A stretch of 64,000 bases of DNA from an uncultured Bacteroidales bacterium (GTDB lineage Bacteria; Bacteroidota; Bacteroidia; Bacteroidales; UBA3824). The notes below the pieces were generated by a model. That model saw nothing but the letters and a program-made list of their open reading frames with translations. It was not told the DNA's origin and searched no databases. The translations under genes and the position numbers were made by a program. The DNA lies in NCBI GenBank assembly GCA_905234655.1, contig CAJOJG010000009.1, positions 352 through 64,351 of the forward strand. The letters run 5' to 3'. This document shows positions 7,521 to 22,985 of the stretch, in pieces; position 1 is the stretch's first letter; each line of letters opens with the position of its first letter.

Positions 7521-8834
7521 ATGTCAAGAATAGCCATCATAGGAGCAGGAATATCGGGATTGTCAGCCGCCAAGTCACTAATGGACAGCCACTCCGTCAC
7601 AATATACGAAAAAAGCGAAACTGCGGGCGGAATAGCCAAGAGCCAGCACGCCGACGGGTGCGTGTTCCACGTCTGCGGCGCAAACTCGATGAAAAGCCTG
7701 CACGATGCCACACGCTCATTCATATCGTCGCTCATCGACATCGACGAGGAAATTGTGGAAATCACACGAAACAGCGCGATACTCTTCGAGAACGGCGAAG
7801 TGTCAAAACCGGAGTTCCACGGCATGTTCCGCAAAAAAATGACCGAAATAGAAGGTGTGCCGAGCCCGATAGAGAACCACATATACATGTTCAAGCCCGA
7901 AATCCAGCGTCAAATCATCAGCGACATCTTCCACGTCAAGGCAAAAGAGCGCAACCGGCGCGCGCCAAAATTCCTCGCCACATACCTCAAGTCGAAGTTT
8001 GGACAGACGCTCTACGACATGTACTTCGGCCCCTACAACGAAAAAGTTTGGCACAGCGACCTTAAAAAAATCCCGCTCAGATGGCTCGAAGGACGACTAA
8101 GCGCGCCGACCGCCGACGAAATCCTATTGGCCAACTTCAACCACACGAACTACAAGCCGGGAGCCGCAAAAACATTCCTCTACGACACTAAGGGCGGCGC
8201 ACAAAGGCTCATAGACCGCCTTGTGGAGACTTTGGGCGACAGGCTCGTATGCAACCACGCCGTCCAAACCATCGAGCGCAAAGGCGACGTGTGGACTGTG
8301 GACGGCTCAGAATACGACAAAGTCGTCTACTGCGCAAACCTGAAACTCCTGCCCAAAATCCTGAAAACCGACCTCATTGAACCATTCACAGGCTACATCG
8401 AATCCCTGAAATACCACGGCACCACGTCAGTATTCTGCGAATTGGCGAAGAATCCCTACACCGAGATTTACCTGCCAGGAAAAGAGCACCGCGCCCACAA
8501 AATAATATGCACAGGAAACTTCACGCCCGAAAATAACAACGACCGACACAAGATGACCGGCACTGTGGAGTTCACGGACTACATCTCCGAAGACGAAATA
8601 AAGGGCGAACTCTCACGTATGCCGCTTAACCCGACATACATCACGCACCGGTACATCGAATGCACCCACCCCATCCAGGACATTGACACGCGCGAAACTG
8701 TATCCAACATAAAAGCCGCGCTACTTCCGTCGGGATTCTACCTGACAGGCCTCATCGCCGAATGGGAACAATACAACGTCAACCAGGCCATCAACGCCGC
8801 AATCAAAACCGTCGAAACAATGCATAATTCATAA
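7521..8834 (+). CDS. FAD/NAD(P)-binding oxidoreductase (amine-oxidase / protoporphyrinogen-oxidase-like fold)
   Basis: N-terminal Rossmann dinucleotide motif IAIIGAGISGLSAA...YEK....GG. 437 aa. The last four codons and the stop (MHNS*) lie inside the heptamer repeat element. Confidence 0.6.
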   Translation: MSRIAIIGAGISGLSAAKSLMDSHSVTIYEKSETAGGIAKSQHADGCVFHVCGANSMKSLHDATRSFISSLIDIDEEIVEITRNSAILFENGEVSKPEFHGMFRKKMTEIEGVPSPIENHIYMFKPEIQRQIISDIFHVKAKERNRRAPKFLATYLKSKFGQTLYDMYFGPYNEKVWHSDLKKIPLRWLEGRLSAPTADEILLANFNHTNYKPGAAKTFLYDTKGGAQRLIDRLVETLGDRLVCNHAVQTIERKGDVWTVDGSEYDKVVYCANLKLLPKILKTDLIEPFTGYIESLKYHGTTSVFCELAKNPYTEIYLPGKEHRAHKIICTGNFTPENNNDRHKMTGTVEFTDYISEDEIKGELSRMPLNPTYITHRYIECTHPIQDIDTRETVSNIKAALLPSGFYLTGLIAEWEQYNVNQAINAAIKTVETMHNS

Positions 8835-8862
8835 TGCATAATTCATAATTGCCATTCGGCGG
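8819..8862. repeat. Heptamer-palindrome element, half copy ((ATAATGC/ATAATTC)n-ATAATTGCCATTCGGCGG)
   Basis: AATGCATAATTCATAATGCATAATTCATAATTGCCATTCGGCGG. It belongs to the same family as 10837, 27413, 27561, 54243 and 54321, and overlaps the stop codon of the upstream gene. Confidence 0.8.
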
Positions 8863-8884
8863 AAAAATATTAATGCAAACCAAA

Positions 8885-8912
8885 ATTGTCAATTGTCAAC
8901 TGTCAATTGCCG
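8885..8912. repeat. 7-bp microtandem ATTGTCA x4 (ATTGTCA ATTGTCA ACTGTCA ATTGCCG)
   Basis: Read directly from the sequence. It sits 23 nt upstream of the purO-like start codon. Confidence 0.7.
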
Positions 8913-8934
8913 ATTATTAAAAACAATAAACATA

Positions 8935-9651
8935 ATGAAAATCGAATCGTTAGCAAAAGAGCTTTCCGCCACCACCTACCCCGGCCGCGGAATTGTGATA
9001 GGCAGAAGTGCCGACGGCAAATACGCCGTTACAGCATATTTCATAATGGGACGCAGCGAAAATTCGCGCAACCGCGTGTTCGTCGAGGACGGCGAGGGCA
9101 TCCGCACAGAGGCGTTCGACCCGTCAAAAATGAAAGACCCGTCGCTCATCATCTACGCGCCGGTCCGCGTCCTCGGCAACAACACAATCGTTACCAACGG
9201 CGACCAGACCGACACCGTCTATGACCTGATGAACGCCGAACAGACCTTTGAAATGTCGCTTCGCACACGCCAGTACGAACCCGACGCACCCAACTTCACG
9301 CCGCGCATCTCGGGCATTATGAACGTCAACAAAGGCAAATACACTTTCCAAATGTCAATCCTCAAATCCGACAGCGGCCGCCCCGAGTCAAATTGCAGAT
9401 ACACATTCAGTTACGACAATCCGATAGCGGGCGAGGGACGCTTCATCCACACATACATGGGCGACGGCAACCCGCTGCCGAGTTTTGAAGGCGAGCCGAC
9501 GAGGGTGGACATCAAGGGCGGCATCGACGAGTTCACTTCCACCGTCTGGAACAGCCTCGACGCCGAAAACAAAGTGTCGCTCTTCACGCGCTTTATCAAC
9601 ATTGAGACAGGCAGTTACGAAAGTAGAATCATCAACAAAAACACCAAATAA
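8935..9651 (+). CDS. IMP cyclohydrolase-like protein (archaeal PurO-type fold)
   Basis: YPGRGIVIGRS.DG...V.AYFIMGRSENSRNR.F and IIYAPVR..GN..IVTNGDQTD are characteristic of PurO-like IMP cyclohydrolases. The start was set at the MKIESL Met. Confidence 0.7.
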   Translation: MKIESLAKELSATTYPGRGIVIGRSADGKYAVTAYFIMGRSENSRNRVFVEDGEGIRTEAFDPSKMKDPSLIIYAPVRVLGNNTIVTNGDQTDTVYDLMNAEQTFEMSLRTRQYEPDAPNFTPRISGIMNVNKGKYTFQMSILKSDSGRPESNCRYTFSYDNPIAGEGRFIHTYMGDGNPLPSFEGEPTRVDIKGGIDEFTSTVWNSLDAENKVSLFTRFINIETGSYESRIINKNTK

Positions 9652-9652
9652 A

Positions 9653-10831
9653 ATGCAGGAATACCAACTCAAATACGGCTGCAACCCCAACCAAAAGCCC
9701 GCGCGGATATACATGCCGCAGGGCGAACTTCCCGTGGAAGTATTGAACGGCAGGGGCGGCTACATCAATTTCCTCGACGCCTTCAACGGCTGGCAACTCG
9801 TCAGCGAACTCAAAAAGGCTACCGGCATCCCCGCCGCGACCTCGTTCAAGCACGTTTCGCCGGCGGGCGCGGCCATTGGACTGCCGCTGTCGGACGTCGA
9901 GAAAAAGATATATTGGGCGGACGACCTCAACATCGAGTTCACGCCCCTCGCCAACGCCTACATACGCGCACGCGGCGCAGACAGAATGTCGTCGTTTGGC
10001 GACTTCATCGCGCTTTCCGACGTCTGCGACGAAAGCACCGCGCTCGTCATCAAGCGTGAAGTTTCCGACGGCGTGATTGCGCCCGGCTACACCGATGCCG
10101 CCCTCAACATCTTGAAAGCCAAGAAGAACGGCAACTATTGCGTCATCAAAATCGATCCGGAATACAAGCCCGCGCCCATCGAGAGGAAGGAAGTTTTTGG
10201 CATCACATTCGAGCAAGGCCGCAACGAACTTGTAATAGACGAACACTTCTTCGACAACATCGTTACCACCAACAAAAACCTGCCCGCACAGGCCAAGACC
10301 GACCTTGCGATTGCGATGATTACGCTGAAATACACACAGAGCAACTCGGTTTGTTACGTGAAAAACGGCCAGGCCATCGGCATCGGCGCAGGCCAACAGT
10401 CGCGCATCCACTGCACGAGGCTCGCCGGTCAGAAAGCCGACAACTGGTGGCTTCGACAGTCGCCGCAAGTGCTTGGTCTTCAATTCGTTGACGGCATCAA
10501 GCGTCCCGACCGCGACAACACCATCGACATCTACATTTCCGACGACTACATGGACGTACTTGCCGACGGCGAATGGCAAAAATTCTTCAAGGTAAAGCCC
10601 GAAATCTTCACCCGCGAGGCCAAACGCGCCTGGCTCGACAAAAACAGCGGCGTTTCGGTCGGTTCCGACGCATTCTTCCCCTTCGGCGACAATGTGGAAC
10701 GCGCCCACAAGAGCGGCGTCCTCTACATCGCCCAGCCCGGCGGCTCTGTCCGCGACGACAATGTCATCGACACCTGCAACAAATACGGCATCGTGATGAG
10801 TTTCACGGGGATAAGACTGTTCCATCACTAA
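9653..10831 (+). CDS. AICAR formyltransferase-domain protein (PurH C-terminal domain only)
   Basis: LKYGCNPNQ, FKHVSPAGAA, GIGAGQQSRIHCTRLA and SDAFFPF resemble the AICARFT half of PurH. The start is at 9653 (MQEYQLKYG), 1 nt after the purO-like stop. The longer ORF start at 9485 overlaps the previous gene and was rejected. Confidence 0.75.
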   Translation: MQEYQLKYGCNPNQKPARIYMPQGELPVEVLNGRGGYINFLDAFNGWQLVSELKKATGIPAATSFKHVSPAGAAIGLPLSDVEKKIYWADDLNIEFTPLANAYIRARGADRMSSFGDFIALSDVCDESTALVIKREVSDGVIAPGYTDAALNILKAKKNGNYCVIKIDPEYKPAPIERKEVFGITFEQGRNELVIDEHFFDNIVTTNKNLPAQAKTDLAIAMITLKYTQSNSVCYVKNGQAIGIGAGQQSRIHCTRLAGQKADNWWLRQSPQVLGLQFVDGIKRPDRDNTIDIYISDDYMDVLADGEWQKFFKVKPEIFTREAKRAWLDKNSGVSVGSDAFFPFGDNVERAHKSGVLYIAQPGGSVRDDNVIDTCNKYGIVMSFTGIRLFHH

Positions 10832-10836
10832 AATTC

Positions 10837-10918
10837 AATGCATAATTAATGCATAATTCATAATGCATAATTCATAATCAGGCTTCCGCCGGATGGCAAT
10901 TATGAATTATGCATTAAT
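10837..10918. repeat. Heptamer-palindrome element, full hairpin copy
   Basis: The left arm ...GCATAATTCATAAT (to 10878) and the right arm ATTATGAATTATGC... (from 10899) are reverse complements flanking the loop CAGGCTTCCGCCGGATGGCA. The element begins 5 nt after the stop of the upstream gene. Confidence 0.85.
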
Positions 10919-11076
10919 CTTGACGACATCGACGGTGGGAACACCATCGGGTGTGGATGTACTTACACCACAAAACTACAAATAACCACCGATATATCTA
11001 CAAAAAAACGCAAAATCCACCATGTTTGTCCTACATTTGTTTTATTTTGTCCACCATGGGTGAGGGGATTGAGCGT

Positions 11077-11084
11077 TAAATTTG
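11077..11084 (+). promoter_or_regulatory. -7 promoter box TAAATTTG
   Basis: TAnnTTTG match 46 nt upstream of the GH43 ATG. Confidence 0.4.
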
Positions 11085-11129
11085 CGACATCAATACAAAC
11101 AATAAATTCACTCAATAAACCTTTTTACT

Positions 11130-12923
11130 ATGAAGACAAGACATTTGATGATGGCGGCTGCCATGATGTTCGCGTCGGTCGCCATCGTAGGATGCGGCGA
11201 TGACGACGAAAACGAAATTCCAATGCCGCCAGGTGGTGAAACAAATACCAACCAAGGCAACGGCGACGAAAGCACCACGCCTACTCTCAAAACCACGGTA
11301 GCAGCCGGTCCCATCGGCACTGACGGCCTTACTAAGAAGGACGACTACCGCACATCGGCTGGCTGGGAGAACCACTTGACATGGAACCTCGCAAATGTAC
11401 ACGACCCATCTGTGGCATATTACAATGGCTACTATTATATGTATGGCACTGACGCTTCGTTCGGCAACGCCCACAACAGCGCGACTAACGGCAAGCATTT
11501 CCAGGGCAAACGCTCCAAAGACCTCGTAAACTGGGGCTACGTTGGCGGACCTTTCAACGACGCGCCATCCTGGATGTTGGACTCCATAAACAGTTTCCGC
11601 GCAAAGATGGGCTTGGAAGGCACACTAACTTATAACGACATCAAAGGACAGCTCGGCTACTGGGCACCCGTAATCAGGAATGTTGACGGCAAACTCCGCA
11701 TGTATTACAGCATCGTCTGTGACAACTTCCTCAAGACAGGCGGCACTGTGTTCGACAACTCGTGGAACATCTGGGCATTCATAGGAATGTGCGAATCCAC
11801 CGACCCCGAGAACGACGTATGGTACGACAAAGGTTTTGTGACCTGCTCATCGTCCGACAAAGGCATCGATGGCTGGGCAAGGTCATCAACAGGCGATTGG
11901 AACGCTTATTGTTTCTATAATGCCATCGACCCGACTTACATCGTCACACCCGAAGGCGAGCATTGGCTCATCCACGGCTCTTGGCACAGTGGTTTCACCG
12001 CACTGAAACTCGACCCGACTACTGGCAAACCCGCCAACCCTGTGGGCGACCCCTGGGCTTCTAACGCCACAGACCTCCAACAAAGGTTTGGCAAGAGGAT
12101 TGCAACACGCGGCATTTCGCGCTGGCAGGCATCGGAGGCTCCTGAAGTCATCTATAAGGACGGCTACTATTACCTTTTCATGGCGTGGGACGGTCTCGAT
12201 GTCCCATACAACACACGCGTTGTCCGCGCACAAAGCGTTGACGGCCCTTATTACACATCACGTGGCGCCAACTACACCGACGGCGCAGAAAACACAAAAG
12301 TATATCCAATCGTCACCCATCCATACAAATTCAAGGACGGCCCGGGCTGGGTGGGCATATCCCACTGCTGCGTTTTCCAAAACCAAGACACAAAAGAATG
12401 GTTCTACATGTCGCAGGGCCGCTTCCCTGCCGACTACGACACTTGGGCACCGAATGCAATCATGCTCGGCCATGTAAGGAAAATCGTATGGTGTCCGGCG
12501 ACAGCTGACGACTTGAACGACTTGTGGCCAATCGCACTGCCTGAACGTTACGCAAATGTCGAGCAGACTCCGATCAAAACTTCCGAAATCCCCGGCAAGT
12601 ACGAGTTCATAAACCTTGGCTACAAATATGGCGAACAGATTGCCGCCGATGCCGACTACTTAGTGTTCAATGAAGACGGCACGATGTCCGGCCCGCTTAA
12701 CGGCACATGGGAATTTGACGAAACTACCAAATATCTGAAACTCACATCTTCCGACGGCAAGTTTGAAGGTTCGGGCAATAATCTCGGTTCTGTCATCGTA
12801 TGCGTAGAGCGCGAACGCGACTGGGAAAAGAAAGTAGAATCGACACTCGTTTTCGCCGGTTTCCACAAACTCCACACGAACACCTTCTGGGGTAAACGTG
12901 TTGCAGATTTAGACTCCAAATAA
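11130..12923 (+). CDS. Glycoside hydrolase family 43 lipoprotein (arabinanase/xylosidase-like)
   Basis: Lipobox (ASVAIVGCG). GH43 signatures NVHDPSVAYYNGYYYMYGTD and YWAPVI...GK..MYYS, plus a later WQASEAPEVIYKDGYYYLF block. The extra C-terminal domain is of unknown function. Confidence 0.8.
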   Translation: MKTRHLMMAAAMMFASVAIVGCGDDDENEIPMPPGGETNTNQGNGDESTTPTLKTTVAAGPIGTDGLTKKDDYRTSAGWENHLTWNLANVHDPSVAYYNGYYYMYGTDASFGNAHNSATNGKHFQGKRSKDLVNWGYVGGPFNDAPSWMLDSINSFRAKMGLEGTLTYNDIKGQLGYWAPVIRNVDGKLRMYYSIVCDNFLKTGGTVFDNSWNIWAFIGMCESTDPENDVWYDKGFVTCSSSDKGIDGWARSSTGDWNAYCFYNAIDPTYIVTPEGEHWLIHGSWHSGFTALKLDPTTGKPANPVGDPWASNATDLQQRFGKRIATRGISRWQASEAPEVIYKDGYYYLFMAWDGLDVPYNTRVVRAQSVDGPYYTSRGANYTDGAENTKVYPIVTHPYKFKDGPGWVGISHCCVFQNQDTKEWFYMSQGRFPADYDTWAPNAIMLGHVRKIVWCPATADDLNDLWPIALPERYANVEQTPIKTSEIPGKYEFINLGYKYGEQIAADADYLVFNEDGTMSGPLNGTWEFDETTKYLKLTSSDGKFEGSGNNLGSVIVCVERERDWEKKVESTLVFAGFHKLHTNTFWGKRVADLDSK

Positions 12924-13069: not shown

Positions 13070-14512
13070 ATGGCGAAAGACAAAATCATAGGCAGAGTAC
13101 AGGAAATCAGACTGTTAGACGACCTGGTACAGTCTGGCAAGGCTGAGTTTGTGGCGTTATATGGACGCAGGAGGGTCGGAAAGACGTACCTATTGCAGCA
13201 ATATTTTGACGGCAAGTTCGATTTTTACTACACCGGATTGTACCAGACCGACAAGAATGTGCAACTCGACAGGTTCGCGACCTTACTGTCTAAAGCATCG
13301 GGAACGGCAAAAAAGAAACTCAAAACATGGTTTGACGCATTCGACGCGCTGCGCGAACACATCATAGCACTCGGTAAAAAGACCGTCGTCGTTTTCCTCG
13401 ACGAACTGCCATGGATGGACACGCCCAAAAGCAACTTTCTTGCGGCGTTTTCCGACTTTTGGAACTCGTGGGGATGCCGGCGTCCCGAACTCAAACTTTT
13501 CATCTGTGGCAGCTCGACGACATGGATAATGTCAAACATCATCGGCGACCGTGGCGGGCTTTACGGACGCATGACACGCTCCATATACATCGCACCCTTC
13601 AGCCTTGGCGAGACCGAGCAATTCCTCGCCAAGATGAAGGGCATGCGGTGGAACCGGCATCAGATTATCGAACTATACATGATTCTTGGCGGAATACCAT
13701 ATTACCTCGACCTGCTGAAGAAAGGCGCACCATTCGCGCAGTGCATTGACAATCTGTTCTTTAACCATGGAGCGGCATTGCGCACAGAGTTTGACTTCCT
13801 GTACCGCAGTCTATATGGCAATTCAGTTTTTTACAAGCAGGTGATAGAGGTGCTGTCAAGCCGACTTTCAGGACTTACACGCGCCGAAATCGCAAAGGCA
13901 CTGAAAGTCAAAAGCGGCGGCGCACTCACGGAAGCCCTTGACAATCTTTGCAGTTGTGATTTTATAAGAAGGTACAACGCCATCGGCAAGTCGACAAAGG
14001 ACACGATATACCAATTGACCGACCTGTTTTCACTTTTCCATCTGAGGTTCGTGAAGGCATCGTCGGCCGCCAATGACAATTTTTGGACTAATATCCACGG
14101 AAAATCCCAGCAGACGGCGTGGGCAGGCTACGCTTTTGAGCAGGTATGCCTTCATCATATTCCGCAGATAAAGACCAAACTCGGCATTTCGGGAGTATCA
14201 TGCAATGTAAGTTCATGGATTGGCACTGAGAAAGATGCCGACGGCAAGGCTGTCCAAACCGCACAAATCGACTTGCTCATAGACCGCAGCGACGATGTCA
14301 TAAACGTCTGCGAAATCAAGTATTACAAATCCAAATTCTCCATCGACGACAAGTACGCCGAACATCTCCGCGAGCGGCTTTCGCTGTTCAAGCGCGTCAC
14401 AAAGACCAATAAGGCATTGTGGCTCACGTTCATAACCACATACGGACTTGCCGCGTCCCCCAATGCTGGCGAAGTTCAGAACGAGGTTATCAGCGACGAT
14501 TTGTTTACCTAA
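13070..14512 (+). CDS. Orphan P-loop ATPase (archaeal-ATPase / DUF234-like family)
   Basis: MAKDKIIGRVQEIRLLDDL..SGKAEFVALYGRRRVGKTYLL (Walker A) and Walker B VVVFLDELPWM, with a winged-helix-like middle and a C-terminal region with nuclease-like spacing (AQIDLLIDR...INVCEIKY). Confidence 0.65.
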   Translation: MAKDKIIGRVQEIRLLDDLVQSGKAEFVALYGRRRVGKTYLLQQYFDGKFDFYYTGLYQTDKNVQLDRFATLLSKASGTAKKKLKTWFDAFDALREHIIALGKKTVVVFLDELPWMDTPKSNFLAAFSDFWNSWGCRRPELKLFICGSSTTWIMSNIIGDRGGLYGRMTRSIYIAPFSLGETEQFLAKMKGMRWNRHQIIELYMILGGIPYYLDLLKKGAPFAQCIDNLFFNHGAALRTEFDFLYRSLYGNSVFYKQVIEVLSSRLSGLTRAEIAKALKVKSGGALTEALDNLCSCDFIRRYNAIGKSTKDTIYQLTDLFSLFHLRFVKASSAANDNFWTNIHGKSQQTAWAGYAFEQVCLHHIPQIKTKLGISGVSCNVSSWIGTEKDADGKAVQTAQIDLLIDRSDDVINVCEIKYYKSKFSIDDKYAEHLRERLSLFKRVTKTNKALWLTFITTYGLAASPNAGEVQNEVISDDLFT

Positions 14513-14780
14513 CTTGACTCATAATGATATTTATGATGCCAGTGCAAAAAGTTTTTTGAAAACGTCGGGCGAGGACGAGTTTGACGTAATCTTTCAGGCC
14601 GCGCACGTACAGCAACTGCGGCAGGCTGACCCTCACCATCATTCCGTCGCTCTTGACGAAAATGTCGTTGGGCGCATTTTGGGGCGGGGGCGCGGCGGAT
14701 TGATATTCCCATATCGGCCGGTAAAACAGCGCGAACAGCACGGCGAGGGTGGCGAGGATGATTGCATAGTGTTTTTTCAT
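14505..14780 (-). pseudogene. Truncated LytTR-domain protein remnant
   Basis: An N-terminal TM helix, then IFVKSDGMMVRVSLPQLLYVRGLKDYVKL, which is the first half of a LytTR DNA-binding domain. Similarity is lost about 60 nt before the convergent ATPase stop. Confidence 0.5.
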
Positions 14781-14792
14781 GGTCGTGGGGTG

Positions 14793-15100
14793 TTACATTC
14801 GTGGGGTGTCGTCGCCGCCCTGTTCGGTGCGCTCGAAGTCGTCGTTGTTGATGGTGCTCTTGGTGCGCTTTACCTGCACTTGCTTGCCAAATCTGTAGGA
14901 GAGCGACACGCCGACGCGTCCGATGCTGATTCGGCTGCTGGTGTTGGATTCGTAGCCGACGCCCGCCGAGTGGGTGTCCATGTGAAGGTGGTAGCCGTGT
15001 TTGAGGTCAGCGAGATTTCTTCCTCGCGGGTGAGGCGGATGATGTTTTCGTCGGTCAGGAATTGAAGCCTGTAATACTCTTTTGGGAAGTCTTTCGCCAT
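14793..15100 (-). pseudogene. Frameshifted remnant of an outer-membrane beta-barrel protein (C-terminal end only)
   Basis: Two overlapping frames. One ends GVGYESN..RISIGRVGVSLSYRFGKQ, which resembles the terminal strands of Bacteroidetes OM barrel/TonB-dependent-like proteins. It is far too short to be functional. Confidence 0.4.
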
Positions 15101-15214
15101 TTGTGATTGTTTTGCAAGGCAAAGTTAGCATATTTTTGTGATTTGCAAAAATCGTTTTCATGTTAACGAAAAAATTTTTTTCTAATTGTTTTTTTTATTT
15201 TGTAGAAAATGTAT

Positions 15215-15222
15215 TACATTTG
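15215..15222 (+). promoter_or_regulatory. -7 promoter box TACATTTG
   Basis: TAnnTTTG match 30 nt upstream of the ATG at 15252, preceded by an AT-rich tract. Confidence 0.45.
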
Positions 15223-15251
15223 TCCTCGAATAACAAAACTCTATTGTCATA

Positions 15252-17834
15252 ATGAAAACCATCAATTTGCTATTGGCATTGGCTGCGCCCGCGATGCTGG
15301 CCGCCGGATACATGCCTGATAACGACAAGTATCAAAATATCAACAATATACGCCAGTTCGCCACGGTGAATGGCGATGACGACGGCTTCAGGCTGTGCAA
15401 GCAGCCGTACTACAAAGACATGTTCGACGACAAGGAACTCTCGAAGCTCGACAAGGCGGAAAAATACCGCGCAAAGTCCGACGAGGCCACTGTCCTCGCC
15501 GCCGCAATCCAAAAACAGGCGGACGACATGAGGATTATATCCGGTCAATCCGCCAAGATTCAAAAGCAGTCCGCAAAACTCTCCGCAAAGGCCGCGTCCC
15601 AGGAACTAACAGCCCTCAAGACATTCGAGAAGGCGGCTTCGTTGTACCGTCCGGTGTACTTCGACAAGATTGCCAAACTCGCCGCAGACACCTCACAGGC
15701 GAGCCTAAAGACCGCGCGCCAACTTGCTGAAAAGGCTTACCTCCACTACCACGCCGCAGACTCCATAAAGGGCGGAATAACTGCGGAAAACACCCTCGAA
15801 TCCAACCGCGCAATCTACACGAACATCGTCAATGCCGTTCATTATCAGGAACTTGCATTGGCAATCTGCAAGGGCGACCCGAAAATAGACTACACAAACT
15901 ACACAAACATCCTGAAGTCCACCGACACTACTTCAAAAACTGTCGAGATTCCAAAACTCATTGCCTTTGAGCATTACGATTTTGACAAGGACTCCAACCT
16001 CTACCGTCTGCGCTACCGCCAACTGACGCCAAAACTCGCCATCACCGACGCCGACAAGAAAATCGTCGACAAAATATCGCTTGACGAAGCCGCCATCGCC
16101 GACTATTTCCAAAAGGCGCAGTCCAAGGGTTGTTCAGCCGACACATTCCGCGTCTACGCCAACAACGCCGACAATCTCGCCGTGCGCGAATACTACGAGC
16201 AGATGGCGCAGGAAAGCGAACTCTCCGAATGCAGCAACCTATTGAAAGGCGTGAAGTTAGAGACCACGAACAACAATGCGCTCTACGAACTCTACAAGAA
16301 ATACATCCCCGCAATCCGCACCACGACTCCCACTGTCGGCACATACCGCGACCGCAGCGCAATAGCCACAATGTGGGAGCAGCAAGCCGAGAACCTCTAC
16401 AAAATCTCAAAAACATACGAGGAACTCGCCGCAAAACAGCTCAGCCACGTCGAGCAGTACACCCAACTTTCCGAGGGCAACGAGGCTAAGCTCCAGGCTC
16501 TGCAATACATTGAAAACGCAGTTGCAATATACCTCGGCGACTCCATCGTTCGCCCGAACAGCTCGTTAGCCGCCACAGCCGTCGAACGCCACAACGACAT
16601 CGCCATGGACTTCATGATGGACGAGTCGGGCGACGCGCCAGTTAAACCTGTGACGACTAACACAAACAAGTCAAACACACCGAAAACCACACCAGCAAAC
16701 ACCGTAGTCGACGTGTCAGGCAACAACAACAAAACCACAAACACCACCACAACGACCACGAAGCCGACAACGACCACAAAACCGACCACGACGACCAAAC
16801 CGACGACATCCAAAACCACAGTTGTCTCAGAACGCCAGCCCGCCGTCTCGTCGTCAAACGCCGCCGTAACAGCGACTTCCTACTACACACGCGACGACCA
16901 AAGGCTAAAGCCGTATAAATTCCCAACCTCGACAATATTCAGCGTCGAGGCCGGAATCTACAAAGAAATGCCGGAGCCGGTCGAGTTCCCGTCGGTTCAG
17001 ACCTTCCTGGCTCAAAACCTCAAAGGACAGACCTTCATGCGCTACTACATCGGCACATTCAAGACCTACGACGCAGCCCTCGCAGCCCAGGCGATTGCGA
17101 AAGACGAAGGCTACACCTCGTCAAAAGTCGTCGCATTCACAAACGGCAAGAAAGTCGACCTGACCGCCGCACGGAAGTCCGCCGAAAAAGCGTCAAACTA
17201 CCAGTCGCTCGTCCAAAGCGAGCTCAAAGCCTTGAACGCCAACCGCAAGGCGACCACTCCGGTCGTTGTGGCGACTAACACGGTCAACACCACAGGCTCC
17301 GCCCTGCCGCTCTCCATGCTCGGCGACTCATACGCCGTGCAGATTGCCGCGCTGCCCAAGCTCCTCGGCATGGACGCTTTCAATGTCAGCGAACTTTACT
17401 ACGACCAGAACGACGCAGGGCTGTACCGCTACTACACCGGCATCTCGGACGACATGAGCATTGCAAACGCAAACCTCACGACGCTCCGCCAGTCGGGCTA
17501 CGAAGACGCATACCTCGTCCAAATCGCCAACGGAACCAACATCGGCAACGCGACCACAAAGAACACGCCCACCGGCGCGAAAACCGGCACAGTATACCGC
17601 GTGCAGATCGGCGCATTCGCCGGAAACCCGAACCCCGACACCCAAAAGCGCATCAACTCACTGAAAGCCAATGGCTACACCGTCCATACGAGCCAGTCGG
17701 GGAAATACACAGTATACACCGTCGGCGACTGCACGACGCGCGACCAAGCCGAGACCATCAAAAAACAACTCGTGAACAAAGGCTTCAAGGAATCATACGT
17801 AGCCACATTCGTTAACGGCGTAAAACAGAACTAA
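15252..17834 (+). CDS. Secreted SPOR-domain protein: long helical N-terminal region, Thr/Pro linker, three SPOR-like repeats
   Basis: Signal peptide MKTINLLLALAAPAMLAAG. An Ala/Lys/Gln-rich helical region. A TTTTKP linker. C-terminal repeats of the SPOR pattern (YAVQIAAL..., YRVQIGAFAGNPN...GKYTVYTVG......A......L...GF..SYV). Confidence 0.75.
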   Translation: MKTINLLLALAAPAMLAAGYMPDNDKYQNINNIRQFATVNGDDDGFRLCKQPYYKDMFDDKELSKLDKAEKYRAKSDEATVLAAAIQKQADDMRIISGQSAKIQKQSAKLSAKAASQELTALKTFEKAASLYRPVYFDKIAKLAADTSQASLKTARQLAEKAYLHYHAADSIKGGITAENTLESNRAIYTNIVNAVHYQELALAICKGDPKIDYTNYTNILKSTDTTSKTVEIPKLIAFEHYDFDKDSNLYRLRYRQLTPKLAITDADKKIVDKISLDEAAIADYFQKAQSKGCSADTFRVYANNADNLAVREYYEQMAQESELSECSNLLKGVKLETTNNNALYELYKKYIPAIRTTTPTVGTYRDRSAIATMWEQQAENLYKISKTYEELAAKQLSHVEQYTQLSEGNEAKLQALQYIENAVAIYLGDSIVRPNSSLAATAVERHNDIAMDFMMDESGDAPVKPVTTNTNKSNTPKTTPANTVVDVSGNNNKTTNTTTTTTKPTTTTKPTTTTKPTTSKTTVVSERQPAVSSSNAAVTATSYYTRDDQRLKPYKFPTSTIFSVEAGIYKEMPEPVEFPSVQTFLAQNLKGQTFMRYYIGTFKTYDAALAAQAIAKDEGYTSSKVVAFTNGKKVDLTAARKSAEKASNYQSLVQSELKALNANRKATTPVVVATNTVNTTGSALPLSMLGDSYAVQIAALPKLLGMDAFNVSELYYDQNDAGLYRYYTGISDDMSIANANLTTLRQSGYEDAYLVQIANGTNIGNATTKNTPTGAKTGTVYRVQIGAFAGNPNPDTQKRINSLKANGYTVHTSQSGKYTVYTVGDCTTRDQAETIKKQLVNKGFKESYVATFVNGVKQN
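16743..16820 (+). repeat. Coding 15-18 bp tandem repeat giving (T)4-6KP x3
   Basis: ACN-rich repeats encode TTTTTTKPTTTTKPTTTTKPTTSKTT within the SPOR protein. Confidence 0.8.
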
Positions 17835-17836
17835 GA

Positions 17837-19855
17837 ATGGAATGGTATTGGATCATAGCCATTGTAATCGCCCTTATAGCCACAGCGGTACTCGTGACCC
17901 ACTTCATCGACACGAGCGACGAAATCCCCATGCTCAGAGCCCTGTACCGGCTGTTGGGTTTTAAAATCCGCGACAATGCCCGGGCGGAATACCGCGCGCT
18001 GAAGGAAGAAACCCAAAACAAAATCCTCCAGATAATGCGCAGCGGCCACTCTATACTTGTCGAAATCCCGGAGTTCGAGGCTGCGCCGTCGGAGACTACG
18101 TTCCGCGTCTCACTGACGGAGTTGTATTCAAAGAACCAGGTCAAAGACATATACCAAAAGGCAAAGAAAATGGTCATCGAGGAAGTCCCGGACTACGAAA
18201 TCTTCTTGCAGGCGTATAAGATTGTGAAGGTCGTGAAGTCGGACCTGTCATTCGGAAGCCTCATCTCCGCATCAAAAGTAAAGTCAACCGACCTCCTCAA
18301 CTTCGCCCGCGCATGGTGCGAACAGTCGAGCGCAAACCTGAAGATAGATTTCCCGACCGCCTATAAGTTCATCAGCAACGGCAGGGACTTTGCAAACCTC
18401 GTTCACCTCGACCTGCTCGCCAAACGCGCCGGAATCGAACTCGACGAACAAAACTTCATCAACCTCGTCAGCGACGAAGAACTAACGGTCATCATATACT
18501 CGCTCATCCGCGCGAAATACGAAGGCATATACATCTCGGAGGAAGAAAACCTCCTCGTCAACAAGGCCAACGTCCTCGAATACAACGACTCCTTCAAAAT
18601 AACGCTCGACCTGCTCGTCAAGCTGTGCAAACTAAAGCGTGATGTCAAGAGGTTCACGGACGTGATGATTCGCGCCCACAACTCCGGCGTCAACATAAAC
18701 TTCTCGTTGTCAGACCTGTTCGCGCTATCGGACGATGGATTCGAGACACTTGTTAATAATGTCATCCGCGCCACAGACTGCGGCATTAACATCGACCAAA
18801 AAGACCTCATCCGCCAGAACATCCAAGGCACGGACATCACTAACCTCATCACAGCACTCATCAAGGCGCACAAATACAACATCGACCTCACGCCCGACGA
18901 ACTGATGAGCTACCTTGTCAACAAGAAAGCCGACGTCGAAAAATTTGTCGAGGCACTTAACTTCATCAAACAAAACGACCTCCCGCTCACGAAAGACTAC
19001 ATCGTCGACATATCCAAGACGGACAGGGACGTGCATGATTTTGTACAGGCGTACAAGATTGTGAAGGACTACGAGTCAAAGCCCAACAACTACGGCATGA
19101 CCATCAGCGCGATAACCCAACACTTCCTGACATTCGGCAAAGCACTCAAAACCGTAAAGACAATCATCAAGGCACAAGAAGAACTCGACCTGAGGATGAA
19201 CTTCGGAATAGCCAATAAGATAATGAAAAAAGGCAAGGAAACCCTCAACGACGCAATCGCTTGGGCGCAGAACCCGGCTGTCGTGGAAGTCGAGCCGAAA
19301 GTCACATGCGTCTGCAAGGACGGCATCCAAGTAACGCCAAAGGTCAATGCCACAGTCCGTGGCAAGATGGAACAATACTTCTGGGGATACCGCTTGCCAG
19401 TGCTTTTCGCACGTATTAACGAGGCGATAATATACGAGTTCGAACTCGCCGAGGACCATGACCAAATCATAAACAACCTGCCGCAAATATCCCACAACGT
19501 CCTTGACCGAATTAACGAGGAGGAAAACAAAAAGGAAATCAAGACCGGCGAGACGACTGAAACCGACCTCAACGAACATTGCGCATACAACCTGCTCGAC
19601 GTCAACATCTACGATGTCGAAATAGGCCAGAACGTCAAAGCCGAACTCAACCTCCGCCAGGCGCAGATCGACAGTGAAATCCGCCGCCTGAAAGCCGAGG
19701 CGGACCGCGCAAAGGCGGAAGCCGACCTCAGAATCGCAATGGTACAGCAGTACCACGACGGCACAAAGCCTAACTTCAACGAACTACACAAAGCCAACCT
19801 CCTTGCCGAGTTGTCGCAGGACATCACGACAGGATACGAAAACCCACAACAATAA
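17837..19855 (+). CDS. Divergent, elongated FloA/flotillin-like (SPFH-related) membrane protein with an expanded helical-repeat region
   Basis: One N-terminal TM helix. About 8 copies of a ~30-aa helical motif (e.g. VMIRAHNSGVNINFSLSDL, NVIRATDCGINIDQKDL, LITALIKAHKYNIDLTPDEL). A C-terminal block aligns by eye with FloA (DGIQVT.KV.ATVRG.....G......ARI.E.I...........I.N...IS..V, LLDV.IYDVEIG.NV) and ends in a charged coiled coil. The start is 2 nt after the SPOR gene stop. Confidence 0.55.
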   Translation: MEWYWIIAIVIALIATAVLVTHFIDTSDEIPMLRALYRLLGFKIRDNARAEYRALKEETQNKILQIMRSGHSILVEIPEFEAAPSETTFRVSLTELYSKNQVKDIYQKAKKMVIEEVPDYEIFLQAYKIVKVVKSDLSFGSLISASKVKSTDLLNFARAWCEQSSANLKIDFPTAYKFISNGRDFANLVHLDLLAKRAGIELDEQNFINLVSDEELTVIIYSLIRAKYEGIYISEEENLLVNKANVLEYNDSFKITLDLLVKLCKLKRDVKRFTDVMIRAHNSGVNINFSLSDLFALSDDGFETLVNNVIRATDCGINIDQKDLIRQNIQGTDITNLITALIKAHKYNIDLTPDELMSYLVNKKADVEKFVEALNFIKQNDLPLTKDYIVDISKTDRDVHDFVQAYKIVKDYESKPNNYGMTISAITQHFLTFGKALKTVKTIIKAQEELDLRMNFGIANKIMKKGKETLNDAIAWAQNPAVVEVEPKVTCVCKDGIQVTPKVNATVRGKMEQYFWGYRLPVLFARINEAIIYEFELAEDHDQIINNLPQISHNVLDRINEEENKKEIKTGETTETDLNEHCAYNLLDVNIYDVEIGQNVKAELNLRQAQIDSEIRRLKAEADRAKAEADLRIAMVQQYHDGTKPNFNELHKANLLAELSQDITTGYENPQQ

Positions 19856-19867
19856 GTAAAAAAGAGA

Positions 19868-21328
19868 ATGAAAAAATATTTACTTTACACCATAATCCTT
19901 ATCGCCACAATCGCGCTCCACTCGTGCTACGAGGAAATCCCCGACCCGGTGTACACGACGGAAGACAATGTAACATCGCTCGAAATAGAGGACACCCTCG
20001 GACTTGACAACGAAAACACGGGCGTGTCATTTTGGGACGGATTCCTGATTTTGGTCATCACGATTGGACTTGCAGGACTGATTGTGTGGTTCTTCATCGC
20101 AATGGTGCCGATTAAGCTGTGGTTCAACGCCAAACTTTCAAAAGTCCACGTATCGTGGCTCCTGCTCATAAAAATGCGCTGGCAGAACATCCCGCAGGCC
20201 AAACTCATCAACCTCATGGTCACGGCATACAACGCCGGACTTAAGACATTGAGCCTTCCAGAACTGATGAAATATTACTTGGCGAAAGTCGACCTTGACG
20301 TGGTCGTGGCGACTATGATACGCGCCATGGCGGCTAACGTAAAGGACATCAAGTTCGACGACATGGCACAGTTGTACCTCCGCAAGGTCGATGTCGGTGC
20401 TATCGTCCATGCCCAAATCAACGCCATGAACGCGCAGATAAAGACCACAATCCCCGAGCTGTCAGAGTTTTACCTCGCTGGCGGCAACGTCGGCGACCTC
20501 ATAAAGGCAAAGAACATCGCCGACAACTCCGGCGACGACATAAAGGCGGAACTCGACCTCAGCCGCCTCAAAAAGCACTACCTCGCCGGCGGCAACCTCA
20601 AGAAGACCATCGAAGCCTACATTTCAGCCAAAAAAGCGAAACTGACAGGCTTCGAGTTCGAGGACATCTGCAAAATCGACCTTGCGGGCATGGACGTTGT
20701 GGAGGCTATAAAGCCCGCCATCAACCCGATTGTCGTGGAGACTGACGGAGTACGTGGCATCGCGCGCGACGGCGTTGAGTTGACGATGAAAGTTAAAGTG
20801 ACGCTCCGCTCCCAGATAAAGAACATCATCGGCGGCGTAAGCTCGGACACTGTGCTTGCCCGTGTCAATGAGGGACTTGCCACGAGGATTGGCATGGCGC
20901 AGAGCCACACTGAAATTCTCCAAAACCCATATCAAGTCGCCGACTACGTCGAGCAGAACGATGTCATCAGCCAAAATTCCGCATACGAGGTACTTTCCGT
21001 GGACGTTTCGGACATCAGAATCGGCAACGACGTAAGCGCGTCGCTCAAAGTCTCACGCGCAAAGGCGCAGGTCGAGGCTGCAAAAGCCGACCTCATCTCC
21101 GCCGAAGAAAAAGTGCAGAAAGCCATGGCGTCCGCATTCTTGGACGGCAACATCTCCGTACAGGAATACACCGACCTCAAGAACAAGCAAGCCGACACGC
21201 TCATGCGCCAGAGCCTTGCAAATGTGGACGTCACCGGCCACCATCTTTCCACGCAGACCGACCTCGGCGACAACACTCCCCACATCCAGGACACCGACGC
21301 GACCGACGTGACGGACAGAGACAAATAA
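19868..21328 (+). CDS. FloA-family flotillin-like protein (UPF0365/YqfA-like), long form with an N-terminal lipobox
   Basis: HYLAGGN (twice), IDLAGMDVVEAI.PAINP.VVETD, RDGVELTMKVKVTLR, GG.S.DTVLARV.EGL...IG....H.EIL.NP and YEVLSVDVSDIRIG match my recollection of Bacillus FloA. It is 486 aa versus about 330 aa. The N-terminus MKKYLLYTIILIATIALHSC is lipoprotein-like and is followed by a TM helix. Confidence 0.7.
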   Translation: MKKYLLYTIILIATIALHSCYEEIPDPVYTTEDNVTSLEIEDTLGLDNENTGVSFWDGFLILVITIGLAGLIVWFFIAMVPIKLWFNAKLSKVHVSWLLLIKMRWQNIPQAKLINLMVTAYNAGLKTLSLPELMKYYLAKVDLDVVVATMIRAMAANVKDIKFDDMAQLYLRKVDVGAIVHAQINAMNAQIKTTIPELSEFYLAGGNVGDLIKAKNIADNSGDDIKAELDLSRLKKHYLAGGNLKKTIEAYISAKKAKLTGFEFEDICKIDLAGMDVVEAIKPAINPIVVETDGVRGIARDGVELTMKVKVTLRSQIKNIIGGVSSDTVLARVNEGLATRIGMAQSHTEILQNPYQVADYVEQNDVISQNSAYEVLSVDVSDIRIGNDVSASLKVSRAKAQVEAAKADLISAEEKVQKAMASAFLDGNISVQEYTDLKNKQADTLMRQSLANVDVTGHHLSTQTDLGDNTPHIQDTDATDVTDRDK

Positions 21329-21332
21329 AAAA

Positions 21333-22985
21333 TCACCGCGACGAAAAATCCCACACGCTGTCGCACAACTCGGCGACGGCGAGCCTGTGGGTTATCATCA
21401 GGATAGTCTTTCCGGCGCACCGCTCGAACAAACGCCTGAACAGCTCACGCTCCGTGGCCTCGTCCAACGCCGAACTTATTTCGTCCAACAGCATCACATT
21501 CCCGTTGCGCAAAATTCCGCGTGCAATGGCGATGCGTTGAGCCTGACCTTCGCTAAGTCCGCTGCCGCGCTCGCCAAGCACAGTGTCAAGTCCATTCGGC
21601 AACTCGAACACAAAATCCGCCATCGCTGCACTCAGCACGTCGCACAATTCCTCATCTGTCGCCTCCGTCTTCGCAAGACAAAGATTGTAACGGATTGTGC
21701 CGCTCATCAGTGTATTGCCCTGCGGCACAAAGACAAAATAATCGCGGGTATTTGGACCGACCACAATTTGACCATCGCCGTCATAAAGGCTCACAGTACC
21801 GTCCGACGGCTGCATCAGCCCGAGCAACAGCCTGAAAACCGTCGTCTTCCCCACCCCGGTCCTGCCGATGATTGCGGTATGGCTTCCCGGCGGAATGTCA
21901 CGTTCAAAATGCCTTAGCACGTCGCCGCCGTCCGCCGAATACTTGAACGAGACATCGTGGAGGCGGATTCCGGGGACTTTGAGGTGCGGCTTATTTACAC
22001 TGCCACTTTCCACAGCCACTGCCTCGACCTCAAGATTATCAAGTTCATCGAGCCTGTCGATGCTCGCCGTGGCGTGTATGAACTGCGGCACAAGGTTCAG
22101 CAACTGAAGGATAGGCTGTTGGATTTGACCGACAAGCTGGAGGAACGATGTCATCACGCCCAAAGTTATCGCGCCGTCCCTGAGTTGGAGACCGCCCCAC
22201 ACAAACGCAACCAAGTACCCGAGCCCAAAACTTGCCGCAAGTATCGACCGCGTGAAGACTGTGAAACGTGTACGTCTCCTGACCTTCCCTTCCAAATCGC
22301 CCTGCATACTCTCCACCTGCCCGACCATCCATGGCGTTGTGCCGAGGGTGCGGAGCGTAGTGTCGAGCTCAAGGCTTTCCTGGATAAGCATCTGCACACG
22401 GGTTTCCTGCTGCCTGATGTCGTGCGTGAGAGTACGGAGCCGCCGCGCAAGAAGTTTGCCGGAAACGATGAACGCCGGTGTCAACAGCAGCAGAATCCAC
22501 GCCAACGTCGCGTCCATCGTCCTTAACATGAGGAACGCGCCAAGAAGCTTGCAGCATCCCGCCGCCGCCTCCGGCAACATTGTGCCGATGCTCTCGGACA
22601 CCTTCTCTATGTCGGTCTCGAGCCGTGAGACAAGCTCGGCGGAATGTAAATTTTTGCCGTCATAAAGCCTGCGGCGCATAAGGCGACTGTATATGCGCAG
22701 GCGAATGCCGTTGCCCTGGCGGACCTTCGCCTCTATGCCGAGGTAATAATACGTCTGCCGCAGAAGAATCCCCGCCACGACCACTGCAAACAGCATCGCC
22801 AGCACGTGCCATATCTCGACGTCCGAGCCGCTGTATATGGTCTCGTCGATGAATGTCTTGCACAGCCACACCATCGCCAACGAAGTCCCCACGTTCATCA
22901 GTCCAAGCACGACCTGCATCGTCATATTAAGGCGTATGCCGTTTGTATTGCGCCAAATCCAGGCGATATATCGTAGTAATGCCAT
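21333..22985 (-). CDS. ABC exporter, fused permease-ATPase (MsbA-like half transporter)
   Basis: Six-TM N-terminal domain. Walker A GRTGVGKTT, signature LSEGQAQR and Walker B VMLLDEISSALD. Confidence 0.85.
   Translation of the reverse strand: MALLRYIAWIWRNTNGIRLNMTMQVVLGLMNVGTSLAMVWLCKTFIDETIYSGSDVEIWHVLAMLFAVVVAGILLRQTYYYLGIEAKVRQGNGIRLRIYSRLMRRRLYDGKNLHSAELVSRLETDIEKVSESIGTMLPEAAAGCCKLLGAFLMLRTMDATLAWILLLLTPAFIVSGKLLARRLRTLTHDIRQQETRVQMLIQESLELDTTLRTLGTTPWMVGQVESMQGDLEGKVRRRTRFTVFTRSILAASFGLGYLVAFVWGGLQLRDGAITLGVMTSFLQLVGQIQQPILQLLNLVPQFIHATASIDRLDELDNLEVEAVAVESGSVNKPHLKVPGIRLHDVSFKYSADGGDVLRHFERDIPPGSHTAIIGRTGVGKTTVFRLLLGLMQPSDGTVSLYDGDGQIVVGPNTRDYFVFVPQGNTLMSGTIRYNLCLAKTEATDEELCDVLSAAMADFVFELPNGLDTVLGERGSGLSEGQAQRIAIARGILRNGNVMLLDEISSALDEATERELFRRLFERCAGKTILMITHRLAVAELCDSVWDFSSR

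Follow-up and report, generated by a model that had tools for sequence, protein, structure and literature searches.

Why should a gene for a putative peptidoglycan-binding SPOR protein stand in one operon with two genes for flotillin-like FloA proteins? The question is raised by three adjacent genes in a 64,000-nucleotide (nt) stretch of DNA from an uncultured Bacteroidales bacterium (GenBank assembly GCA_905234655.1, contig CAJOJG010000009.1, positions 352 to 64,351 of the forward strand); this whole stretch is called the window. Gene 1 encodes a protein in which an N-terminal HB domain is joined to SPOR modules (HB-SPOR), and genes 2 and 3 encode enlarged FloA paralogues, the first one long, the second carrying a lipoprotein-type signal (lipo-FloA). 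We found HB-SPOR and FloA-family genes linked in both search directions, and a functional link between them is well supported. The open reading frames (ORFs) are as follows, with lengths in amino acids (aa).

15252-17834, plus strand: gene 1, HB-SPOR protein, 860 aa
17837-19855, plus strand: gene 2, long FloA paralogue, 672 aa
19868-21328, plus strand: gene 3, five-repeat lipo-FloA paralogue, 486 aa

Homologues of genes 1, 2 and 3 were repeatedly found on contigs of equal length. In the forward direction, the family alignment of gene 3 was scanned against one genome per GTDB species, and the 80 loci obtained were classed with tblastn and custom hidden Markov models (HMMs). The order HB-SPOR, gene 2, gene 3 (class A) was kept at every locus in which gene 3 was at least 55% identical and enough upstream DNA was present. 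A preliminary description of the window had expected the triplet to be syntenic in related genomes, and we found it in 19 species beyond the window, in 'Bacteroidales bacterium' metagenome-assembled genomes from rumen, yak, sheep, goat, deer and horse gut; the link between SPOR and FloA genes also recurred in rearranged Bacteroidota clusters. Three more loci consistent with class A were interrupted by contig ends. The flanking genes vary between class A loci while the triplet is constant, and therefore the triplet moves as a unit.

The rearranged clusters fall into three further classes. In class B (L035, L039, L040 and L062) the order is HB-SPOR, NfeD, canonical FloA, long FloA and lipo-FloA, and L026 has this cluster without the long paralogue. 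In class C (L047, L050, L056 and L058) the HB-SPOR gene is followed by a divergent FloA-like gene, long FloA and lipo-FloA. At the nine loci of class D a gene for a SPOR protein lies immediately 5' of lipo-FloA, and the N-terminus of one of these proteins (L045) is collinear with the HB profile (E = 9e-5). A SPOR gene was present in the same-strand cluster at 39 of the 48 assessable gene 3-type loci (L064 and L066 included), in at least four gene orders. Canonical FloA loci of Proteobacteria and Clostridia had no SPOR gene, and several had NfeD immediately upstream.

The reverse test started from distant HB-SPOR representatives, with 24-29% identity. FloA-family genes were found downstream at every HB-SPOR locus with enough DNA; L086 and L090 end too early. 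The order was HB-SPOR, ClpS, FloA, FloA at L087, and HB-SPOR, ClpS, a divergent FloA-like gene and FloA at L088 and L089. At L091 the HB-SPOR gene was followed by DUF8371 (130 aa, 4288-4680), ClpS and a canonical NfeD-FloA pair, with no expanded paralogues, and at L092 by ClpS and a truncated protein with FloA-type repeats (E = 6e-9). A metagenome scan with a three-sequence HB alignment, whose search patterns were of low complexity, gave a single locus, L085, where the order is HB-SPOR, ClpS, NfeD, FloA. As a separate observation, a T9SS_plug_1st gene (PF17116) lies divergently upstream of HB-SPOR at two independent distant loci, L087 (4552-5829, minus strand) and L092 (2878-4158, minus strand).

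ClpS (about 60 bits, cut-off 23) stands directly after the HB-SPOR gene and before the NfeD and FloA genes, for instance at 5500-5772 of L040. It was found at all class B and class C loci (L026, L035, L039, L040, L047, L050, L056, L058 and L062), at L064 and L066, and at L085-L089, L091 and L092, and it is absent from the window and from the class A and class D loci. NfeD stands beside canonical FloA at L026, L035, L039, L040, L062, L085 and L091. The older Bacteroidota cluster is HB-SPOR, ClpS, (NfeD, FloA), long FloA, lipo-FloA. Because deeper relatives hold this fuller cluster, the window operon is a reduced derivative, with ClpS, NfeD and canonical FloA lost from this position. The lack of an NfeD gene in the operon had been remarked on earlier; neither an NfeD gene nor a canonical FloA gene was found anywhere in the 64-kb window, and the absence of NfeD is a secondary loss, since NfeD, canonical FloA and ClpS occur in the same cluster in deeper relatives.

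The partner that accompanies the FloA paralogues, the gene 1 product, scored 47.9 bits against Pfam SPOR over the whole protein (gathering cut-off 21) and has 35 homologues of about 830-885 aa. Its AlphaFold model has a mean predicted local distance difference test score (pLDDT) of 67, and its structured parts reach 70-90. Its parts are the following.

15252-15308, plus strand: Sec-type signal, aa 1-19, MKTINLLLALAAPAMLAAG, read from sequence
15384-16556, plus strand: HB domain, aa 45-435, two long four-helix bundles in the AlphaFold model
16560-16868, plus strand: Thr/Lys/Pro-rich linker, aa 437-539, disordered (pLDDT <50), containing TTTTTTKPTTTTKPTTTTKP
16869-17186, plus strand: SPOR-like module 1, aa 540-645, degenerate; Pfam SPOR 19 bits, E = 0.0018, under the cut-off of 21
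17328-17543, plus strand: SPOR-like module 2, aa 693-764; Pfam SPOR 13.8 bits, E = 0.076, under the cut-off of 21
17589-17828, plus strand: SPOR module 3, aa 780-859, canonical; Pfam SPOR 40.2 bits

All HB-SPOR homologues begin with MK and a hydrophobic stretch, and the gene 1 protein is predicted to be exported to the periplasm. The modelled helices of the HB domain run over residues 60-207 and 266-428, each helix being 25-47 residues long, and the alignment contains the conserved motifs YY..F, Y-[DN]-x3-D-x-NLY, QE.AF and QENA..Y. The domain had no match in Pfam, and Foldseek with the gene 1 model found no fold match for it in the PDB. An exhaustive HMMER pass through 1.84 billion representative proteins returned only 22 HB relatives. 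HB is placed N-terminally in all of them, in host proteins mostly of 800-900 aa; SPOR was above threshold in each of the ten relatives tested, and the HB domains of deep relatives share 13-23% identity. HB is a real family and a new domain, previously unnamed.

The preliminary description had read the C-terminal part of gene 1 as three SPOR-like repeats behind a (T)nKP linker. The linker sequence is present, and the repeats are SPOR by Pfam score and by fold. The beta-alpha-beta-beta-alpha-beta pattern is found in each of the three modules of the AlphaFold model, so that the fold holds for the whole triple, but of the three only module 3 passes the Pfam threshold. By Foldseek, module 3 matched the SPOR domain of CwlC (1x60) with a template modelling score (TM-score) of 0.72, and also DedD (6ztg); by phmmer, the sole PDB match of gene 1 was the same CwlC domain, a weak match that falls in module 3. 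The glutamine of strand beta-1 is important for glycan binding by SPOR domains, as studied in FtsN and DamX. In the homologue alignment, module 1 has E, K or Q at this position, not an invariant Q; V696-Q697-I698 of module 2 is invariant in 30 of 30 homologues, and Y-R-V-Q-I-G-A of module 3 is invariant or nearly so. An invariant beta-1 V-Q-I is thus common to modules 2 and 3 and not to module 1.

Genes 2 and 3 had been taken for FloA-like proteins. Profile searches place both in the FloA/SPFH superfamily, and the model of gene 2 matches stomatin, HflK/C and prohibitin. Against Pfam FloA (gathering cut-off 34) gene 3 scored 281.4 bits and gene 2 scored 121.5 bits, and against the NCBIfam FloA equivalog NF010186 (cut-off 393) they scored 280 and 119 bits; the canonical FloA of L040 scored 518 bits over the full Pfam profile. 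Judged by these profile scores, genes 2 and 3 are paralogous subfamilies of the FloA family and not FloA orthologues, because both miss the equivalog cut-off. Gene 3 has 96 homologues, mostly of 460-500 aa, and gene 2 has 37, of 640-800 aa. A phmmer search of the PDB with gene 3 gave no match. FloA is the SPFH5 subfamily, which was defined partly through its operon partner NfeD (PMC2636767). In Staphylococcus aureus, FloA has a cytoplasmic body and depends on its helical PHB subdomain 1 to recognise lipids and to localise to microdomains; the OB domain of NfeD is cytosolic and binds the start of the FloA coiled coil (PMC11222466).

A 33-aa helical hairpin, for which we built an HMM (consensus YLAGVDVEKVVEALIKAKNAGLDITFDDLAEHY), is present in two copies in a canonical Bacteroidales FloA, in five in gene 3 and in about ten in gene 2. 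The canonical FloA proteins of L040 and L067-L083 have two repeats, except that of L075, which has one, and the number is five in every complete gene 3-type protein. The parts of gene 3 are the following.

19868-19927, plus strand: lipoprotein-type signal to Cys20 (…IALHSC), read from sequence
19928-20038, plus strand: exported acidic tail, aa 21-57, 11 acidic and 0 basic residues, read from sequence
20039-20113, plus strand: transmembrane helix, aa 58-82, then a conserved P-x-K-L-W-F, read from sequence
20180-20674, plus strand: five 33-aa hairpin repeats, aa 105-269, five consecutive matches to the repeat HMM
20675-21217, plus strand: terminal half-repeat, SPFH core, shortened coiled coil and AFxDGN motif, aa 270-450, by alignment

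The lipoprotein-type signal and the extra repeats that had been reported for gene 3 are both present: the lipobox ends in HSC, and the repeats are five consecutive copies of FloA's own 33-aa hairpin (E-values of 6e-9 to 3e-14). The lipobox cysteine, a predicted site of lipidation, occurs in 57 of 59 family members, and the arrangement of signal, tail and transmembrane helix is common to 57 of the 59. Over the family, the length and the net charge of the tail have medians of 38 aa and -9. The transmembrane helix has acidic residues on its N-terminal side and K/R residues on the other, and this distribution suggests a cytoplasmic C-terminus for gene 3; at F76 and P81 there is almost no variation. 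Block for block, gene 3 can be aligned with canonical FloA, and a 25-aa deletion in the coiled coil is found in all gene 3-type proteins. The FloA blocks listed in the preliminary description stood up in four cases (IDLAGMDVVEA, NPIVVET, ARVNEG and LSVDVSDIRIG), but HYLAGGN occurs once, not twice, the other copy reading FYLAGGN. Two gene 3-type proteins with five repeats, at L058 (10844-12025, 394 aa) and L060 (3455-4657, 401 aa), are without the lipoprotein signal and the acidic tail, and therefore the exported tail is dispensable in some lineages.

For gene 2 the AlphaFold model has a pLDDT of 80, and its parts are these.

17843-17908, plus strand: N-terminal transmembrane helix, aa 3-24, a helix in the model with hydrophobic sequence
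18131-19270, plus strand: helical-hairpin repeat array, aa 99-478, about 10 units of about 33 aa, by model and repeat profile
19277-19756, plus strand: SPFH alpha/beta core, aa 481-599, and coiled-coil helix, aa 600-640, by Foldseek and model

The family consensus of gene 2 is K/R-rich just past the transmembrane helix, and this composition suggests that the body of the protein may face the cytoplasm. Gene 2 had been described as keeping only the C-terminal FloA-like core, behind a much larger repeat array. The SPFH core was confirmed, Foldseek with the C-terminal part returning stomatin, HflK/C, prohibitin and major vault protein at a probability of 1.0, and the array turned out to be an expansion of FloA's own hairpin. 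The model has about 11 helix pairs between residues 99 and 478, and the repeat HMM and hhalign delimit units at 181-209, 269-295, 303-324, 330-360 and 434-457; self-BLASTP of gene 2 detected no internal repeats, and it took the structure model, the repeat HMM and hhalign to reveal them. About 20 aa are inserted in the core, and the coiled coil is 21 aa shorter than that of canonical FloA. A kinship of the array with transcription activator-like (TAL) effector repeats was considered and rejected: Foldseek gave E values of about 3e-4 but TM-scores of 0.17-0.24 and a root-mean-square deviation of about 30 Å, the two kinds of repeat are unrelated in sequence, and those of gene 2 come from the hairpin of FloA itself. 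The likeness, two-helix repeats of about 33-34 aa, is taken as local fold convergence.

The coiled-coil spacer, which runs from the last strand of the core to the C-terminal motif and was measured in the window at 19634-19756 and 21000-21217 and at loci L001-L083, is fixed in length within each class across dozens of species. All gene 3-type proteins have 42 residues here, gene 2 of the window clade has 46, and canonical FloA has 60 or 67; the long paralogues of L040 and L046 also have 60. Steps of 7 and 14 residues amount to whole heptads. Coiled-coil spacers that are fixed by class point to a constrained geometry of assembly.

The operon layout agrees with what had first been described, namely three plus-strand genes with gaps of 2 nt (genes 1 and 2) and 12 nt (genes 2 and 3) behind one TAnnTTTG box; the reading frames, the spacing and the box were all borne out. 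The box is this.

15215-15222, plus strand: candidate Bacteroidota-type -7 promoter box TACATTTG, read from sequence, about 30 nt 5' of the gene 1 ATG

Between 15131 and 21328 the plus strand has two TAnnTTTG matches, one of which is this box, and within 15223-21328 it has none, so that no copy is internal to the operon; this absence fits a prediction that the three genes form a single transcription unit. The whole window holds 54 copies of TAnnTTTG against 31.7 ± 5.1 expected, a number attained in 0 of 100 shuffles, and this enrichment fits a Bacteroidota origin of the window. Scans for sigma-70 promoters and for terminators are uninformative for this organism; the former gave a small excess (9 against 4.2) with no site upstream of gene 1, and in the latter terminator-like sites were not above expectation. 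A reading of the operon as anti-phage defence was rejected, since none of the three proteins matched any PADLOC model.

Four nt past the end of gene 3 lies a convergent ABC-transporter gene. Just upstream of the operon are two small minus-strand ORFs, at 14505-14780 (91 aa) and 14793-15161 (122 aa), which have no Pfam match and may be gene fragments; L001, a near-identical contig, has gene calls for both. A block of Pan_kinase, Toluene_X-like, TPR and LptC-like genes was seen within about 6 kb of the triplet both in L001, which is the window's lineage (17004-21461), and in L002, a relative of 57% identity (8240-12652); the block is common to both, and the immediate flanks differ.

What, then, might the linkage do? 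Our preferred account is a physical coupling of gene 1 to a FloA scaffold across the inner membrane, to which we give a probability of roughly 0.45. The products of genes 2 and 3 would co-assemble on the cytoplasmic side of the inner membrane and form a hetero-oligomeric scaffold there, a step proposed because of the analogy with HflK/C, prohibitin 1/2 and flotillin 1/2 and because of the rigid coiled-coil lengths. Their enlarged repeat arrays, which may be the counterpart of subdomain 1 in S. aureus FloA, the part that recognises lipids, would provide a larger membrane-contacting surface. Gene 1 would reside in the periplasm, where its SPOR modules would bind peptide-stripped glycan at septa or at other sites of wall remodelling, and its HB domain would contact the lipidated tail of gene 3 and the transmembrane segments, so that the microdomain would be positioned or held relative to the cell wall. 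The clients of the scaffold are probably proteins of envelope biogenesis or quality control. It is in this form that we infer the tethering of the scaffolds to peptidoglycan or to the division site that the preliminary description had suggested. Bacillus subtilis flotillins are reported to affect peptidoglycan synthesis and MreB movement (PMC7360373).

Several points weigh against such a coupling. By prediction the FloA bodies lie in the cytoplasm and gene 1 in the periplasm, and with the partners so placed any contact must run through transmembrane segments or through the exported tail of gene 3. That tail is all that genes 2 and 3 would expose to the periplasm; its sequence is poorly conserved, and an acidic tail also occurs in family members without an adjacent SPOR gene. 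A pairing of the acidic tail with a basic HB domain was considered and dropped: net charges of HB extend from -14 to +41, with values near zero in the window clade, and tail and HB are not consistently complementary in charge. Nine assessable gene 3-type loci have no SPOR gene within 10 kb. Modules 1 and 2 of gene 1 score under the SPOR threshold, and glycan binding is assumed. Finally, the co-assembly of genes 2 and 3 is argued by analogy with other SPFH pairs, and their coiled-coil spacers differ by 4 residues.

The rival that survives best, possible although we doubt it, is that the three genes are co-transcribed yet their products physically independent. Gene 1 would then be a stand-alone septal SPOR protein comparable to FtsN, DamX and DedD, the FloA paralogues would be general scaffolds, and the shared operon would come from shared regulation in envelope growth or stress. 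Three of the points just listed speak for it, namely the different compartments predicted for gene 1, as an exported protein, and for the cytoplasmic FloA bodies, the poor conservation of the periplasmic tail, and the nine gene 3-type loci that lack an adjacent SPOR gene. However, HB-SPOR is a tiny family that stands beside FloA-family genes at every assessable locus, in several orders and across deep divergence, and shared regulation alone rarely keeps a linkage through so much rearrangement.

An unlikely alternative ties the cluster to membrane-protein quality control and proteolysis, the FloA cages gating clients to Clp through the ancestral ClpS, with HB-SPOR as a sensor in the periplasm or as a regulated client. 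SPFH proteins have protease partners elsewhere, as in HflK/C with FtsH, prohibitin with the m-AAA protease, and stomatin with NfeD/STOPP. ClpS follows HB-SPOR directly in all class B and class C loci and in L085-L089, L091 and L092, NfeD accompanies canonical FloA in those clusters, and the S. aureus FloA-NfeD pair stabilises PBP2a and unfolded proteins (PMC11222466). However, the window operon is without ClpS and NfeD, and neither occurs elsewhere in the 64 kb; no gene for a Clp ATPase or peptidase was seen in the clusters, and the ClpS linkage could reflect a pairing of HB-SPOR with ClpS that is separate from FloA function. Proteolysis also overlaps partly with the physical coupling and does not exclude it. 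A bolder form of the coupling, which we regard as a long shot, would have HB-SPOR sense denuded glycan and signal through a repeat-expanded, hetero-oligomeric FloA cage, ancestrally to ClpS-directed proteolysis. If true, it would be a flotillin-organised outside-in link from peptidoglycan remodelling to cytoplasmic protein turnover.

The SPFH bodies might instead face the periplasm as in HflK/C, forming a cage that encloses or binds the HB domain. This would put the three proteins in one compartment, and the first 15 residues after the helix of gene 2 are net negative, which leaves the positive-inside rule indecisive for gene 2 taken alone. We nevertheless consider it very improbable. The gene 2 family is K/R-rich after the helix, and gene 3 has acidic residues before its helix and K/R after; in gene 3 a second hydrophobic helix comes after the signal, so that the chain has to cross back and the body end up in the cytoplasm. 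The FloA body and the OB domain of NfeD are cytoplasmic in the published case (PMC11222466). Last, the idea that genes 2 and 3 are decaying FloA duplicates, a lineage-specific accident, to which their scores under the NCBIfam equivalog cut-off and the divergent core of gene 2 might point, looks effectively refuted by sequence conservation: the frames are intact in at least 19 species at 44-88% identity with many invariant columns, the coiled-coil spacers are fixed, the five repeats are constant, and the gene 2 model is confident (pLDDT 80).

The genetic coupling of SPOR and FloA had been put down as undescribed, and a full-text literature search found no paper joining FloA and SPOR, no relevant paper on FloA in Bacteroidetes, and no paper joining ClpS with flotillin or NfeD. 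Public annotations go no further than 'flotillin-like FloA family protein' and 'SPOR domain-containing protein'. The architecture, the HB domain and the partnership are new; since each component falls within a known superfamily, the system is not of a categorically new kind.

The role of bacterial flotillins and their connection to the cell wall are still argued over, and the work has been done almost entirely in Firmicutes. The locus adds a conserved and undescribed case, from a diderm phylum, in which FloA-family scaffolds are linked to a putative peptidoglycan-binding protein dedicated to them, in hosts that are abundant, uncultured Bacteroidales of the rumen and hindgut. The natural series of FloA proteins with two, five and about ten lipid-facing repeats and fixed coiled coils gives a handle on the assembly size and the membrane footprint of SPFH proteins. 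HB always occurs with SPOR and beside FloA genes, and so its role is directly testable. The ClpS gene of the older cluster extends the recurring partnership of SPFH proteins and proteases to the Clp system.

Among known systems, FloA/YqfA (PF12127) with NfeD in B. subtilis and S. aureus is the closest to genes 2 and 3, with which it shares the transmembrane helix, the 33-aa hairpins, the SPFH core, the coiled coil and an AFxxGN-type motif. Canonical FloA has about 330 aa and two repeats, whereas the window paralogues have 486 aa with five repeats and 672 aa with about ten, and their coiled coils are shorter by 25 aa (gene 3) and 21 aa (gene 2). Gene 3 adds the lipoprotein signal and the acidic tail, and gene 2 adds a head region and the core insertion. 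The partner of canonical FloA is NfeD and that of the window paralogues is the HB-SPOR protein, although deeper relatives of the window operon retain the canonical NfeD-FloA pair in the same cluster.

HflK/HflC, prohibitin 1/2 and flotillin 1/2 resemble genes 2 and 3 in being adjacent paralogue pairs, predicted in the window to be co-transcribed, in the fold match of gene 2 and in the rigid coiled-coil length. Unlike HflK/C, the window pair is predicted to be oriented to the cytoplasm, and its hairpin array has no counterpart in the HflK/C, prohibitin or flotillin pairs. With FtsN, DamX, DedD, RlpA and CwlC, gene 1 shares a C-terminal SPOR fold, a predicted export, and a disordered linker before SPOR. 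It differs from the SPOR division proteins in having three tandem modules, a Sec-type signal in place of a cytoplasmic tail and membrane anchor, a 390-aa HB domain, and linkage to FloA at every assessable locus. SPFH proteins with operon partners other than NfeD are also on record, namely with a flotillin-associated rhodopsin and as SamG/SamH-SamI in the B. subtilis pspA operon (PMC10308929, bioRxiv 10.64898/2026.02.06.704340). They are a precedent for a lineage-specific operon partner by which an SPFH scaffold acquires a particular role; in the window operon this partner would be a periplasmic peptidoglycan-binding protein.

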